Source: Dehalococcoidia bacterium
GTDB lineage: Bacteria; Chloroflexota; Dehalococcoidia; Plut-88900
NCBI GenBank assembly: GCA_965197645.1
Contig: OZ240219.1
Span: 2,784,001 to 2,848,000, forward strand
Length of the DNA stretch: 64,000 nt
Direction: 5' to 3'
Shown: positions 4,626 to 54,810 of the stretch, in pieces
Numbering within the stretch: position 1 is the first letter of the stretch
Layout: each line of letters opens with the position of its first letter
Translations under genes and position numbers: made by a program
The notes under the pieces: model-generated
Told to the model about the DNA's origin: nothing
The model's input: only the letters and a program-made list of their open reading frames with translations
The model's database searches: none

Positions 4626-4778
4626 ATGGCTCAAGCGCCCGACGATGCGCAGGAAGAGATCAGGATGGAGCAGCAGCGCATCGATGCCTGCGATATCTGC
4701 GGCGCCACCACCGACGAGGTGCACTGCAAGGTAATATGCCCCAACTGCGGTTACACTAGGGACTGCTCCGATCCCTGA
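4626..4778 (+). CDS. Small zinc-finger protein (CxxCG...CKxxCPNCG..RDCSDP)
   Basis: Cys-rich zinc-ribbon pattern; start is 4626 or 4665. Confidence 0.7.
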   Translation: MAQAPDDAQEEIRMEQQRIDACDICGATTDEVHCKVICPNCGYTRDCSDP

Positions 4779-26921: not shown

Positions 26922-27008
26922 GTCGCATACTACGCCTTCCGCCGTTTGCATTCCCACCCCTGATCTCATATATTGGGCGTCGGGCCCGACCCAGTCGATA
27001 CCTTACCC

Positions 27009-28049
27009 ATGACCTCAACCGGAGAAAGTACAGGCACGGCTCCGAATATCGTCGTTATCGGCGGTGGCACCGGTAACTACGTCGTGCTCAAAGGCCTCAA
27101 GCAACACACACCCAACCTCACCGCTATTGTCGCCATGAGCGATAGTGGAGGAAGCTCCGGACGCCTGCGGGACGAGCTGGGTCATCTGCCCCCCGGCGAC
27201 CTGAGACAGTGCCTGGTTGCCCTGGCCCCGGACAGCCACTCTGACCTCATCCTTCGCCAGCTGTTCGACTATCGCTTCGACCGGGGCACAGGCCTGGAGG
27301 GCCACAGCTTCGGCAACCTGTTCCTAGCCGCGCTAACAGAGATTTCCGGCAGCATCGCCGACGCCATCCTGGAGGCCGGCAGAATGCTCAATATCAAGGG
27401 CAGGGTCTTGCCGGTGACCCTGACCAAGACCAACCTTCACGCCAAGCTGGTTGATGGCTCCGAGGTGATCGGAGAAGCCAGCATCGACGTCCGGCGGGAG
27501 AAAGTCGGCGTCCGAATCGACTACGTTTACCTGAGTCCCAAGGCCTACATACATCCTCCGGCCATCACGGCTATCCAGGAGGCGGACCTGGTAATCATGG
27601 GCCCTGGAGACCTGTACACCAGCATCATCCCCAATCTGCTCGTCGACGGTCTCAGTGACGCCATCCGCCACTCCAATGCCCAGGTGGTGCACGTATGTAA
27701 CCTGATGACCAAGCCCGGCGAGTCCGATTCCTTCAAGGCCTCCGACTTTGTGAAGGAGGTCACGGAGTACATGGGCGCCGGCGCCCGCATCGATCACCTG
27801 CTTCTCAATACCGCTCCCATGCCGCAGAAGCTGGTGGACCGGTACAAACGAGCCGATGCCTACCCCGTGGAAGCGGACATCGACGAGTGCCGGGCCATCG
27901 TGCCCAACATCGTCCAGCTGCCGATGCTCGCTTCAGGGGCCACCCTGCGCCACGACTCCTATGCCCTCGCTCAAGCGATCATGGAGATAGCAGGGTCGGC
28001 GTCCTTCCGATCGAAGGACGCCACCGGGGCCGAGCTGGCCGCCGGTTAG
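27009..28049 (+). CDS. yvcK: YvcK/CofD-like gluconeogenesis factor
   Basis: GGGTG, DSGGSSGRLR, GHSFGNL and GPGDLYTSIIPN. Confidence 0.9.
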   Translation: MTSTGESTGTAPNIVVIGGGTGNYVVLKGLKQHTPNLTAIVAMSDSGGSSGRLRDELGHLPPGDLRQCLVALAPDSHSDLILRQLFDYRFDRGTGLEGHSFGNLFLAALTEISGSIADAILEAGRMLNIKGRVLPVTLTKTNLHAKLVDGSEVIGEASIDVRREKVGVRIDYVYLSPKAYIHPPAITAIQEADLVIMGPGDLYTSIIPNLLVDGLSDAIRHSNAQVVHVCNLMTKPGESDSFKASDFVKEVTEYMGAGARIDHLLLNTAPMPQKLVDRYKRADAYPVEADIDECRAIVPNIVQLPMLASGATLRHDSYALAQAIMEIAGSASFRSKDATGAELAAG

Positions 28050-28057
28050 CTCACCCC

Positions 28058-28107
28058 CCGCCCGGTCTGTTTGCCCTGCCACCCACCCCGGATTGCATCC
28101 GTAGGCG
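28058..28107. repeat. Intergenic repeat family D (ccc..ccaccccggattgcatccgtaggc)
   Basis: Recurs at about 31630-31680 and, inverted, at about 54760-54810. Confidence 0.75.
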
Positions 28108-28157
28108 TCATGCCCCCTACCTCAAGAAGGGTCTTACTTACGAGGAAATCAATCGTG

Positions 28158-28163
28158 TATACT
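28158..28163 (+). promoter_or_regulatory. Putative -10 element (TATACT) of the retron operon
   Basis: Located 5 nt before the first arm of the a1/a2 repeat; weak -35 (TTACTT at 28134). Confidence 0.45.
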
Positions 28164-28168
28164 TCCAA

Positions 28169-28318
28169 ATGAGTCGCCTGCAGCACAGGATTAATCGTTG
28201 CCGCTGATCCAGCGGTGACCTTTGCCGAGGTTGGCTCTACGCTCGGTGCTGAGTCAGTATCCATGATTCCACTGGCACCATTTCCGAGGAAAGCGAAATT
28301 CAGTTGCAGGCGACTCAT
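28169..28318 (+). ncRNA. Retron msr-msd non-coding RNA
   Basis: ATGAGTCGCCTGCA (28169-28182) and TGCAGGCGACTCAT (28305-28318) form a perfect inverted repeat; internal hairpins at 28201-28215, 28224-28247, 28245-28279 and 28281-28292; directly upstream of the RT. Confidence 0.8.
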
Positions 28319-28323
28319 ATTTT

Positions 28324-29916
28324 ATGTTTGACGCACAAAACATCAAGCCAGCACTAACTCGAAGCTCCGACCAATTTCAGGAGCTATTTTGGACCCTCAA
28401 ACGGCCTGAAGACATAGCTGACATGCTCGAAGTCTCCTATCGTGATCTCAACTATTGGATCTATCGCACCCCTGAACCGAGACGATACAGTGCATTTCTT
28501 GTTCCCAAAAAGAGTGGAGGGTCGCGCAGGATTGATATACCCAACACCAATATCAAGATATTGCAAAAGAAATTGAACCAGGTGTTGCGGTCAGTCTATC
28601 GTACCAAGCCGAGTGTGCATGGATTCGTAGTGGGGAAGAGCGTACGGTCTAACGCCCAGCAACATGTAGGGAAGCGTTGGGTATTCAATATCGATCTTCA
28701 AGACTTCTTCCCCTCGATCAACTTCGGACGAGTACGGGGCATGTTCATGGGTAAGCCGTACCACCTGCCCGAGAAAGTGGCAACCGTATTAGCCCATCTT
28801 TGTTGCTTCCAGGGCCATCTTCCGCAAGGTGCTCCCACGTCTCCGGTCATCAGCAACATGATCTGTGCCCAGATGGATAGCCAGTTGCAGCAACTAGCTC
28901 AGAGGAATGGCTCAATTTACACTCGATACGCCGATGACATAACGTTCTCTACTAATTGGAACAGGGTTCCGCTGGAGATATCCGCCACCAACAGCGTAAA
29001 TCAGATAATCCCAGGAGATAAACTCCGCCAGACAGTCGAGCAAAACGGTTTTTCAATAAACAGCAGGAAGGTGTGGTTGCGCGGCCGACACCGTCGGCAA
29101 GTAGTGACAGGTGTTACGGTCAACGATTACCCGAATTTGCCGCGGAAATTCACGAATCAGATACGGGCGATGTTATACGCATGGAGGGAACATGGGCTAT
29201 GTGCGGCCCAAGAACATTGGGCGAAAAAGCACTCTACCAAGCATCGAGTTTCTTGGCGAACCTATCATCAATTCAAGCGAGCTCTAAAGGGTAAGATTGA
29301 GTATTTGGGGATGATAAAGGGTCAAGATTCCCACACCTATCTTAAGTTTCTTGACCAATTGGGTGACTTGGACATCACCCTTACTCACGGAAAAGGAACA
29401 CCGTTACGGCAGCTCCTTCGACGTTATGACCAGTTATCGATTGAGAATGAATTGATTAGCCACCAGGCCCGAGGCTATTGTCTTGAAGAGATTATGAATG
29501 GTTTGTTTGAGCTGTCCGGGATTCTGGTTAAGGCCAGCTTCACCAGGAACGCAGGCGGTGAACAGATCGATGGGGCATTCGAGTTCGGAGGCTGGTACTA
29601 CTTGGTCGAGTGCCGATGGCGGTCCAAGAAAGCAAGTAAGAGTGATGTAGACGGGCTACGGGGCAAGTTAGATCTGTCCGGCGCTCAGACAATGGGTTTG
29701 TTCATTTCGGTAAACGGATGGTCTCAACATGTCGTGAATCTGCTCAAACAGACTCCAGATAAGAAAGTGTTGTTAATGAACGGGGACGATATTCGTGCGG
29801 TGTTAAAGAAAGACATTTCTTTTGGTTCCCTGCTTCAGGCTAAAGTCGAAGCACTGAATCTTCAATCCGAGCCCTTTGTTGGTGTCGCCGACATCCTCTC
29901 GAAGGAGTCTCTTTAG
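28324..29916 (+). CDS. Retron reverse transcriptase fused to a C-terminal Mrr-like PD-(D/E)xK endonuclease domain
   Basis: NAQQH (region X), DLQDFFPSI, LPQGAPTSP, YADD and VTG (region Y); C-terminal RGYCLEE...EQIDG...YLVECRW...GLFISVNGW. Confidence 0.9.
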   Translation: MFDAQNIKPALTRSSDQFQELFWTLKRPEDIADMLEVSYRDLNYWIYRTPEPRRYSAFLVPKKSGGSRRIDIPNTNIKILQKKLNQVLRSVYRTKPSVHGFVVGKSVRSNAQQHVGKRWVFNIDLQDFFPSINFGRVRGMFMGKPYHLPEKVATVLAHLCCFQGHLPQGAPTSPVISNMICAQMDSQLQQLAQRNGSIYTRYADDITFSTNWNRVPLEISATNSVNQIIPGDKLRQTVEQNGFSINSRKVWLRGRHRRQVVTGVTVNDYPNLPRKFTNQIRAMLYAWREHGLCAAQEHWAKKHSTKHRVSWRTYHQFKRALKGKIEYLGMIKGQDSHTYLKFLDQLGDLDITLTHGKGTPLRQLLRRYDQLSIENELISHQARGYCLEEIMNGLFELSGILVKASFTRNAGGEQIDGAFEFGGWYYLVECRWRSKKASKSDVDGLRGKLDLSGAQTMGLFISVNGWSQHVVNLLKQTPDKKVLLMNGDDIRAVLKKDISFGSLLQAKVEALNLQSEPFVGVADILSKESL

Positions 29917-30079
29917 TAGGCTCTAAACATTGGCCAACTTTTCAAATTTGTGACATTGTTCGCCCACGTTGACGCAGATTGCTCAATTCGATTACCGACC
30001 ACAACCCACCGGAACCGGGGGACTTGTTATGAGCGCTAACGCATCTCAGCCGAGCCCTCACTAGGCTAGCTCACCCAAG

Positions 30080-31474
30080 CTAGGCCGTATAGCGGTACCC
30101 GGTCTTTTCCTGCTTGCTCTTGTTGAGACTCCGGTTCAGATGGAGCCCCTCCAGAACAAACTCGATGGCCGAGGCCGCCGATGCAGATTCCTTATCGCAT
30201 CCCAGGCGCTTCACCGCCTCGTCGACTCCATCCAGGGATCTGAGCGATCGAGCGAAGGACCGGGACGCCTTGAATTCCGAGGTCTCAAAGGTAAATCCGG
30301 TCTCGAATTTTTGGACCACCTCAGCGAAGTCCTCTTTGGCGAAGTACCTGTTGAAGACGTTGGCCGCGGCCCTCTTGATCAGCTCCTCCAGAATCTGCTC
30401 GGCCCGCTCCTCTTCCACCGTCTCCAGCTCCAGTTTCCCGATGGTCGAGGACGCAATGTAGGGCAGATCGGACATCCTGGGCGCCACGACCCTCTCCTTG
30501 TTTCTGATGGAGCGGCGCACTGCGTTTCCCACTATGCTTTCGTAGTTGGCCGTAGAGATCCGAACGCTGACCCCCGAGCGCTGGTTGATATCGGGGCTGT
30601 TCCGGGCCAGGTTTGTGATCTCGGCGATGATCTCCTTCATGAACTGGGGGATCACAGTGGTGCGCCCATCGTCGAACTTCGTGCGCTCCATGTCCATGAT
30701 CTCTATCTCGACGTCCGGGCTCAGGGGGTAGTGGGTCCTGATCTGCGCTCCGTACCTGTCCTTCAGGGGAGTGATGATCCGGCCCCGGTTGGTATAGTCT
30801 TCCGGGTTGGCGCTGGAGACGACGTATACATCGAGGGGCAGCCTCACCCGGTATCCCTTGATCTGTATGTCCCGCTCCTCCATCAGGTTGAACAGGCCCA
30901 CCTGGATACGCTCGGCCAGGTCCGGCAGCTCGTTAATGCAGAATATCCCGCGGTTGGTCCTGGGGATCAGGCCGAAGTGGATCGTCAGCTCATCGGAGAG
31001 GTACCTTCCCTCCGCCACTTTAATGGGGTCGATCTCGCCGATCAGGTCGGCGACGGTGATGTCCGGAGTTGCCAGCTTCTCGCCGTACCGTTCGTCGCGC
31101 GGAAGCCAGTCTATCTCCGTCTCGTCGCCCTGCTGCTCGACCTTGTCGATACACGGCCTGCATATGGGAGCGAAGGGATTGTCGCTTATCTCGCAACCCT
31201 TGATAACGGGGACCTCCTCATCGAGAAGGCCCACCAGCGCCCGGATAATCCGGCTCTTGGCCTGGCCCCGTTCCCCCAGTAAGATTATGTCCTGGCCGGC
31301 CAGGATGGCATTCTCTATCAACGGGATGACGGTCTCATCGTATCCCATGATCCCGGGAAAGACCGGCTCATCGTTTTCCAATCTGGTGATGAGGTTCTTC
31401 CTCAGCTCCTCGCGCACCGTCAGGACCGGATACGACTCCTTTTTCAGATCACCGATGGTCTTCATCTTCGCCAT
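30080..31474 (-). CDS. AAA+ ATPase, Mg-chelatase/MoxR-like (Rv0958-like)
   Basis: GERGQAKSR, INELPDL and NPEDYTNRGRI. Confidence 0.85.
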   Translation of the reverse strand: MAKMKTIGDLKKESYPVLTVREELRKNLITRLENDEPVFPGIMGYDETVIPLIENAILAGQDIILLGERGQAKSRIIRALVGLLDEEVPVIKGCEISDNPFAPICRPCIDKVEQQGDETEIDWLPRDERYGEKLATPDITVADLIGEIDPIKVAEGRYLSDELTIHFGLIPRTNRGIFCINELPDLAERIQVGLFNLMEERDIQIKGYRVRLPLDVYVVSSANPEDYTNRGRIITPLKDRYGAQIRTHYPLSPDVEIEIMDMERTKFDDGRTTVIPQFMKEIIAEITNLARNSPDINQRSGVSVRISTANYESIVGNAVRRSIRNKERVVAPRMSDLPYIASSTIGKLELETVEEERAEQILEELIKRAAANVFNRYFAKEDFAEVVQKFETGFTFETSEFKASRSFARSLRSLDGVDEAVKRLGCDKESASAASAIEFVLEGLHLNRSLNKSKQEKTGYRYTA

Positions 31475-31629: not shown

Positions 31630-31680
31630 AACCCCAGGTTGGTTTTCCCTCCCGACCACCCCGGATTGCATCCGTAGGCT
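31630..31680. repeat. Intergenic repeat family D copy
   Basis: ccctcccgaccaccccggattgcatccgtaggc. Confidence 0.7.
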
Positions 31681-54759: not shown

Positions 54760-54810
54760 TCGGATGCAATCCGGGGCGGGTGGGAGGGAAAACCCACCCG
54801 GGGCGGGGCA
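54760..54810. repeat. Intergenic repeat family D, inverted copy
   Basis: cggatgcaatccggggcgggtgggagggaaaacc. Confidence 0.7.

Follow-up and report, generated by a model that had tools for sequence, protein, structure and literature searches.

A reverse transcriptase fused to an Mrr_cat-type nuclease domain in a Dehalococcoidia genome: a candidate single-gene retron architecture outside the 13-type table

Introduction

Could a retron carry its effector as a restriction-type nuclease domain on the reverse transcriptase (RT) itself, with one RNA and one gene making up the entire system? This question is raised by a locus in a 64,000-nt stretch of DNA from a Dehalococcoidia bacterium (GenBank assembly GCA_965197645.1, contig OZ240219.1, positions 2,784,001 to 2,848,000 of the forward strand), which we call the window and whose numbering is used throughout. 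A first-pass annotation made from the sequence alone had proposed a self-contained retron with an RT-Mrr fusion at 28169-29916. In the classification of Mestre et al. 2020 (PMC7736814), types I-C (TOPRIM), XI (protease), and XII (TIR) fall within RT clade 8 and are the three C-terminal fusions given for that clade, and the same paper mentions extra C-terminal domains in some RTs, "many probably related to nucleases". Here, we analysed the RT, the upstream RNA, the C-terminal domain, and the genomic setting of the locus, and we weigh what the fused protein might do.

Results

The reverse transcriptase

The locus contains an intact open reading frame (ORF) on the + strand at 28324-29916, which encodes an RT-Mrr fusion protein of 530 amino acids, as supported by the ORF call, the translation, Pfam, and the PADLOC models. 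The ORF length and the RT motifs of the first-pass annotation were recovered in the translation at exactly the coordinates given there: N110-A-Q-Q-H114 (NAQQH) from 28651, Y202-A-D-D205 (YADD) from 28927, and V261-T-G263 (VTG) from 29104, all within the RT part (residues 1-350; 28324-29373, +). An alignment of 31 full-length homologues (mean column identity, 67%) shows no variation at residues N110, A111, H114, Y202, D204, D205, V261, T262, and G263. Pfam places RVT_1 at residues 60-251 (E = 4.6e-20), and at E <= 1 it finds only RVT_1 and Mrr_cat on the protein; protease, TIR, and Toprim domains were not found.

The retron models of PADLOC match the window RT with E-values of 1e-132 to 1e-52. 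The best are RT-Protease_XI (1.1e-132), RT-TIR_XII (3.9e-130), and RT-Toprim_I-C (2e-116), and these top models align to the RT part only (residues ~20-352). The NCBIfam retron models also cover the RT part, all with scores below their curated cut-offs: Retron_TIR_antiphage (NF042941) with 367.6 bits against 600 over profile positions 3-325 of 464, retron_Ec67_fus (NF038237) with 338.4 bits against 450 over positions 8-318 of 572, and the St85-type retron model with 207.2 bits against 235. Non-retron NCBIfam matches are far weaker (group II intron, 3.2e-16; Drt2, 1.2e-9; Drt3a, 2.1e-8), so that, comparing PADLOC with NCBIfam, the RT is nearer to retron profiles than to group II intron or defence-associated RT (DRT) models. 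The window RT belongs with types I-C, XI, and XII to one retron lineage, and its earlier identification as a retron RT is borne out by the best-matching models together with the invariant motifs.

The upstream msr-msd RNA

A structured RNA lies directly upstream of the gene on the same strand. The msr-msd non-coding RNA (ncRNA) was delimited to 28169-28320 by its fold z-score, covariation, and a covariance model. A perfect 14-nt inverted repeat closes the 150-nt structure; its 5' arm (a2-like, 28169-28182) is 100% complementary to its 3' arm (a1-like, 28305-28318), which ends 5 nt before the start codon. The first base of this repeat is precisely where the first-pass annotation had let the retron begin. 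Within the closing stem, the msr hairpin TTGCCGCTGATCCAGCGGTGA (28198-28218) is nearly invariant in 11 loci, with most of its 9 pairs unchanged. It is followed by the msd stem-loop (28240-28290), whose base, CGCTCG / CGAGG, is conserved while its interior varies in length and sequence among the loci. By analogy with other retrons, this stem-loop is the presumed template of the multicopy single-stranded DNA (msDNA). The ncRNA has a predicted folding energy of -69.8 kcal/mol (z = -6.2), and none of 200 shuffled sequences was equally stable.

A scan of one genome per species gave 15 related loci, nine of them with a full-length RT-Mrr gene and a further one, L006, cut by the contig end. The hosts of the related loci are mostly Dehalococcoidia, SAR202, and other Chloroflexota, with one from Thermodesulfobacteriota. 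The same ncRNA is present upstream in all ten related RT-Mrr loci, L006 included. The RNAalifold consensus of 11 loci comprises 32 pairs, 18 of which have at least one sequence changed on both sides with pairing kept, and the closing 15-bp stem differs in sequence between the loci with its pairing retained. The ncRNA is conserved and covarying, and it has the a1/a2-closed layout of retrons.

We built a covariance model from the 11 ncRNA sequences and ran it over 38 sources, for which the E-values are rough. The window has the highest score of all loci (151.5 bits at 28164-28325). In L024, an RT-Mrr gene from another Chloroflexota genome that was not among the building sequences, the model also matches, immediately 5' of the RT (81.3 bits, E = 6.9e-20). 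Further matches lie upstream of related RTs with other C-termini, namely in L009 (1.3e-17), L035 (1.7e-10), and L022 (3.6e-9), as well as in L011, L010, L025/L034, L026, and L033. Weak matches were found just upstream of three of the seven RT-protease (type XI) genes: L037 1243-1379 (E = 4.8e-4), L013 2792-2944 (E = 0.011), and L036 1367-1511 (E = 0.059); for type XI, Mestre et al. 2020 (PMC7736814) report no recognisable ncRNA. The model had no match at the two I-C loci (L040, L041) and the one XII locus, and Rfam found no family over 27000-31000 at E <= 10. Judged from its sequence, the locus appears to be a real retron.

The C-terminal nuclease module

The strings RGYCLEE, EQIDG, YLVECRW, and GLFISVNGW, through which the C-terminus had earlier been likened to Mrr_cat and PD-(D/E)xK nucleases, are all present in the translation, and the likeness is supported by sequence profiles as well as by modelling. 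The module, residues 380-530 (29461-29913, +), was delimited from Pfam, AlphaFold2 (AF2), Foldseek, and residue statistics. The Pfam family Mrr_cat (PF04471) matches residues 384-492 above its curated cut-off (E = 4.5e-5; 24.0 bits against 21), spanning profile positions 6-113 of 115, and homologues score up to 47 bits. An AF2 model of residues 350-530, based on an alignment of 36 diverse relatives, has a predicted local distance difference test score (pLDDT) of 94.1 and a predicted TM-score (pTM) of 0.90. The model consists of a helical lead-in followed by an alpha-beta-beta-beta-alpha-beta core, with the order H31-48, E68-72, E75-82, H90-101, and E107-113. Foldseek searches of the Protein Data Bank (PDB) with this model returned 12 chains at E <= 1e-3, among them Cdn1, MspJI, AF1548, the R2 retrotransposon protein, VC1899, HindIII, and BspD6I, followed just below that threshold by FokI, AspBHI, Can1, McrC, NucS, and Can2. 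The C-terminal domain is thereby predicted to have the PD-(D/E)xK restriction-endonuclease fold of the Mrr_cat type.

The putative active site comprises E413, D416 (29569-29571), E429 (29608-29610), and R431 (29614-29616). Over 266 homologues, the acidic positions are nearly invariant, with Glu in 237 at position 413, Asp in 254 at 416, and Glu in 260 at 429. The position of the catalytic Lys is Arg in 159, Lys in 102, a gap in four, and Cys in one, and among the homologues with an RT motif it is Lys in 39 and Arg in 21. The first-pass annotation had pointed out ECR in place of the canonical ExK, which is confirmed as E429-C430-R431, and close relatives differ at this very position (ECR in P0003, ECK in P0005). 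Because Lys and Arg alternate in close relatives while the acidic residues are nearly invariant, we read the putative active site as live, with Arg able to replace Lys.

Distribution of the fusion and of the module

A search with residues 360-530 gave 275 proteins at E <= 1e-3 among 764 candidates, and RVT_1 is present in 47 of the best 120 of these 275 matches, the window protein included. A full scan of 1.84 billion cluster representatives gave 1905 matches at E <= 1e-3, 650 at <= 1e-10, and 48 at <= 1e-30. Among 28 longer or unusual representatives picked for Pfam analysis, 12 are RT fusions; the other partners of the module in this set are NACHT or nSTAND NTPases, TPR, OLD-type TOPRIM, FHA, and DUF3226, and one module carrier has integrase repeats. 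The NTPase-module fusions match Avs2 in PADLOC, where the module alone has a match only to the candidate system PDC-S02, a weak one (4.7e-4). All 11 divergent RT fusions have their best PADLOC score on the XI or XII RT models. The RT-Mrr fusion is a large and diverse metagenomic family with dozens of homologous fusions, common in environmental bacteria, and its members are named in the databases only generically, as "reverse transcriptase domain-containing protein". Within the phylum, the full-length fusion is rare, being found in two of 401 sampled genomes, G000 included; G000 and G232 have one protein match each.

Many of the other matches listed are proteins of ~310-320 residues in which the module has ~50% identity and the N-terminal half carries no annotation. 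Proteins of this kind (P0035, P0064, and many others, ~305-320 residues) are the commonest carriers of the module besides RTs and occur in Binatia, Myxococcota, and many metagenomes. Those of the P0035 type have a helical N-terminal domain of ~150 residues and a coiled-coil-like linker before the module, and a Protein Atlas search with the N-terminal 150 residues of P0035 gave no named family. They are possibly an uncharacterised single-gene defence protein.

Two other Dehalococcoidia assemblies have copies (L008 and L015) that tblastn covers over query residues 2-524 and in which the longest ORFs have 245 and 387 residues, respectively; these copies may be frameshifted or may contain assembly errors.

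Phylogeny and related architectures

A tree was calculated from the first 370 residues of 51 proteins. It includes 28 RT-Mrr proteins (16 of the 31 aligned full-length homologues, the 11 divergent representatives, and L024), together with seven RT-protease proteins, two of type I-C, one partial type XII, five with unannotated tails, one RT-AAA_5 fusion, three RT-only proteins, and four distant RTs. The window protein is one of 16 RT-Mrr sequences that cluster tightly and are separated from all others with 100/100 support. RT-Mrr proteins of the divergent set are scattered among protease, TIR, TOPRIM, and other fusions; the Mrr label changes seven times on the tree and forms a single clade in none of 200 bootstrap trees. 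A single clade of all RT-Mrr fusions is rejected by the approximately unbiased (AU) test (delta log-likelihood 40.6, p = 0.018). The root of the tree and the direction of change are not established because the outgroup branch is very long and two of the outgroup rows fall inside the tree.

Related loci within the same RT and ncRNA lineage have other C-termini or other gene arrangements. L025 (1429-3252, identical with Haur_5150 on the Herpetosiphon aurantiacus plasmid pHAU01, L034), L026, L009, and L011 belong to the ncRNA family of the window, and their RT parts have 45-51% identity. Their C-terminal domains of 230-250 residues have no Pfam match. By structure and by features, the L025 tail has Protein Atlas neighbours in AAA_21 proteins, at their TOPRIM/OLD-like regions (TM by query 0.77-0.85, feature scores <0.9), a lead that the tail might be TOPRIM/OLD-like. 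Two more architectures were found in L035 (1480-3738, Nostoc sp. HK-01 plasmid4) and in L022 and L033 (Geminocystis and Picosynechococcus plasmids). The first is an RT fused to an AAA_5 ATPase (753 residues), and in the second, the RT stands alone as a gene, with genes for a hypothetical protein and an ATPase behind it; both lie outside the 13-type table of Mestre et al. 2020.

Genomic setting

The retron forms a ~2-kb low-G+C island between housekeeping genes, with a G+C content of 0.47-0.54 within 28000-29999 against 0.57-0.64 on either side. The flanking genes encode a CofD-family protein, an AAA_5 ATPase with a VWA neighbour, and a tRNA methyltransferase. The locus has no separate effector gene, which agrees with the earlier reading of its neighbourhood, and no recombinase is present in the ~2-kb unit. 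The 2-kb segment is absent from 10 of 11 same-family genomes, where only a few hundred bases separate the CofD gene from the ATPase gene. The region ~28119-30111 has no match in any of 30 relatives. Because the site is empty in relatives and the segment has no match among them, we consider the retron unit a recent insertion that brought in no other gene.

A putative -10-like box, TATACT (28158-28163, +), lies 5 nt 5' of the ncRNA, and most of the 11 aligned loci have a TATA(C/A)(A/T)T-like box at the matching position, so the box might be the promoter of the retron transcript. A strict scan for sigma-70 promoters and terminators gave no + strand promoter or terminator for the retron unit.

Imperfect direct repeats of 28 nt, spaced 2020 nt apart and 71% identical, flank the island. 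The left copy (28029-28056, +) spans the point where the CofD-family gene now ends (stop codon, 28047-28049), and the right copy (30049-30076, +) was located by the repeat search and by the lack of a match in the relatives to ~28119-30111; TAGCTCACCC ends both copies. The exact 10-mer shared by the two copies is not significant, being matched in 20 of 200 shuffles. Possibly, the right copy is where the CofD-family gene originally ended before its 3' end was displaced, and the island may have its right edge there. In L001, a Dehalococcoidia chromosome, a homologous unit lies between perfect 28-nt direct repeats (2698-2725 and 4700-4727) that are 2002 nt apart, a repeat length reached in none of 200 shuffles. 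The L001 repeat suggests site-specific insertion of the ~2-kb unit, although the unit encodes no recombinase. We considered flanking target-site-like repeats as a general feature and rejected this because only L001 was significant among the 10 loci tested.

Directly after the CofD stop lies the G+C-rich intergenic sequence 28054-28117. Five more partial copies of it, 35-64 nt long and with 77-89% identity, occur in the genome, including two within the window at 31634-31679 and 54761-54808. From these copies, it looks like a dispersed repeat resembling repetitive extragenic palindromic (REP) sequences. Because this REP-like sequence lies between the CofD end and the low-G+C retron, the island may begin on the left only near 28118.

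Discussion

We favour the explanation that the locus is a self-contained, island-borne, single-gene retron with a fused Mrr_cat nuclease, which msDNA would keep caged until a phage triggers its release, and we assign it a probability of roughly two in three. In the proposed mechanism, a single transcript would carry the msr-msd RNA and the RT-Mrr gene, and the RT would copy the msd into msDNA. The RT-msDNA complex might then keep the fused nuclease inactive, by analogy to Retron-Eco2 and type IX. A phage factor, most likely a nuclease, could damage or titrate the msDNA and free the fused nuclease, which would cut nucleic acid, most likely DNA and possibly RNA, and abort the infection. In Eco2 (type I-C), the TOPRIM nuclease fused to the RT is reported to be caged by msDNA, which phage DenB degrades (PMC12916289). 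In type IX, an msDNA scaffold is reported to occlude a tRNA-cutting HEPN RNase until a phage nuclease cuts the msDNA (bioRxiv 2026.07.14.737667). That Mrr_cat could serve as the effector is consistent with the STAND (signal transduction ATPases with numerous domains) defence proteins, in which it is described as interchangeable with TIR and SIR2 (Rousset et al. 2022).

Several observations weigh against this explanation. The Pfam match to Mrr_cat is weak at 24 bits, the TM-scores of the Foldseek matches are moderate (0.33-0.56), and searching the PDB by sequence profile from the domain alignment gave no nuclease, the sole matches (E 0.11-0.85) lying in extra alignment columns. In addition, the canonical catalytic Lys is Arg431 in the window protein, the host is an uncultured Chloroflexota genome, and a search of public sequencing runs listed no RNA data set containing the locus. 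The label "DNase" is a guess because the Eco2 nuclease was reported to cut tRNA instead of DNA (PMC12916289).

This last point leads to the reading that the retron is as described and the fused domain acts in practice as an RNase, for instance as a tRNA cutter. The TOPRIM of Eco2 (PMC12916289) and the HEPN of type IX (bioRxiv 2026.07.14.737667) are both described as cutting tRNA, and the fused module has no recognisable DNA-reading domain, as RVT_1 and Mrr_cat are the only Pfam domains of the protein. DNA endonucleases (MspJI, HindIII, FokI, BspD6I, McrC, NucS, and R2), however, make up most of the structural neighbours, and we regard RNA as the target as unlikely, if worth keeping in mind. 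Cdn1, Can1, Can2, and VC1899 among the neighbours are nucleases activated by cyclic oligonucleotides, and Can1 is a DNA nuclease by title. It is less probable still that the domain in its Arg form is catalytically dead and contributes to defence by binding or sequestration, as a nucleic-acid-binding or oligomerisation module. Arg431 replaces the canonical Lys, and Arg is in the majority in the wider family (159/266); but Lys and Arg alternate among very close relatives, and the acidic positions of a dead site would be expected to drift, whereas the near-invariance of E413, D416, and E429 fits a live metal-dependent site. We also considered that the msDNA might be a specificity element as well as a cage, making the complex a nuclease, guided by DNA or directed by DNA structure, whose nucleic-acid targets pair with the msDNA. 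Such a complex is conceivable because a module without a DNA-reading domain sits on an enzyme that makes and holds single-stranded DNA with a locus-variable hairpin interior; we consider it a long shot. If it were true, the RT-Mrr family would be a natural, self-loading, programmable nuclease.

The small size of the island, its lack of mobility genes, and the apparently interrupted reading frames of L008 and L015 could also be taken to mean that the locus is a decaying, non-working remnant of a larger mobile element. The ORF, however, has the full length of the family without interruption, none of the invariant family residues checked is missing, and no other locus reaches the covariance-model score of the window ncRNA. 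We consider decay very unlikely. We give the least credence to a self-mobile retroelement that would nick DNA with its nuclease and move by target-primed reverse transcription, with no role in defence. The R2 non-LTR (long terminal repeat) retrotransposons likewise have an RT with a restriction-like endonuclease behind it, and Foldseek matches the R2 protein (8iby_C, 6.6e-4; 8gh6_A, 7.0e-4). The island also lacks an integrase and has the imperfect 28-nt direct repeat at its flanks, and the L001 unit has the perfect one. Against mobility, the RT scores as a retron RT rather than as one from a retrotransposon or group II intron, the ncRNA is closed by a1/a2 in the manner of retrons, G000 and G232 have a single copy per genome, and the other eight loci tested have no significant flanking repeat. 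The island moreover includes the promoter region 5' of the transcript, which an RNA-derived copy would lack.

The first-pass annotation had presented the locus as a candidate new retron type, a proposal that holds in part. A restriction-fold fusion is not among the 13 types of Table 1 in Mestre et al. 2020 (PMC7736814), and the literature searched contained no description of an RT-Mrr or RT-PD-(D/E)xK retron, the supplementary tables of Mestre 2020 and Toro 2026 lying outside that search. The two new lineages in Toro 2026, from Bacteroidota and Bacillota, are defined by separate WYL or DnaB_C genes, and the words "nuclease", "Mrr", and "Chloroflexota" do not occur in its main text. The locus is not one of a kind, however, but belongs to the large and diverse metagenomic family described above. 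On sequence grounds, RT-Mrr appears to be a real, sizeable, and unclassified retron architecture that was conceptually to be expected and whose mechanism we infer. The family now has a well-supported ncRNA, the model of which also weakly detects RNA upstream of some type XI genes. The 1.75-kb unit of one ncRNA and one gene is readily testable and is a candidate compact msDNA producer for retron-based editing, and the catalytic position, where Lys and Arg alternate, offers a natural experiment on PD-(D/E)xK chemistry.

Among the known systems, type I-C (Retron-Eco2/Ec67) is similar in plan, with one protein gene 3' of the ncRNA, an RT of the same lineage, and a C-terminal nuclease, and its msDNA cage, from which a phage nuclease releases the effector (PMC12916289), is the likeliest mechanistic model. 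The nuclease fold differs, being PD-(D/E)xK in the window and TOPRIM in I-C, and the ncRNA model finds nothing at L040 and L041. Modules homologous to that of the window occur in STAND NTPases that are Avs2-like or NLR-like (nucleotide-binding leucine-rich-repeat-like), such as P0254 and P0263, which combine Mrr_cat with an NTPase matching PADLOC Avs2. There, the module is described as a swappable N-terminal death effector (Rousset 2022; Kaur et al. 2020 eLife), and the sensor is the NTPase with its repeats, whereas in the window the sensor part would be the RT with msDNA and the module is C-terminal.

Type XI gives the best PADLOC match to the RT, and the ncRNA model is weakly positive at three of seven XI genes; but the window protein has no protease domain, and the XI models align over profile positions 6-322 of 510 only. 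Type XII shares the RT lineage and the single-gene organisation, but the window protein has no TIR domain. The modification-dependent type IV restriction enzymes Mrr, MspJI, and AspBHI have the same Mrr_cat family and fold and carry their own DNA-reading domain, whereas the window protein has the catalytic domain only, behind an RT and with Lys replaced by Arg. The R2 protein has the same order of RT and PD-(D/E)xK domain and is a structural match at E ~7e-4, but its RT is of a different class, and the window retron has an ncRNA, is single-copy, and gives no evidence of retrotransposition. The RT-Mrr fusion amounts to a domain swap in a retron lineage whose C-terminal effectors are already known to be exchanged, and, besides TOPRIM, protease, and TIR, a restriction-fold nuclease would be the fourth effector in this lineage of single-gene RT-effector fusions.

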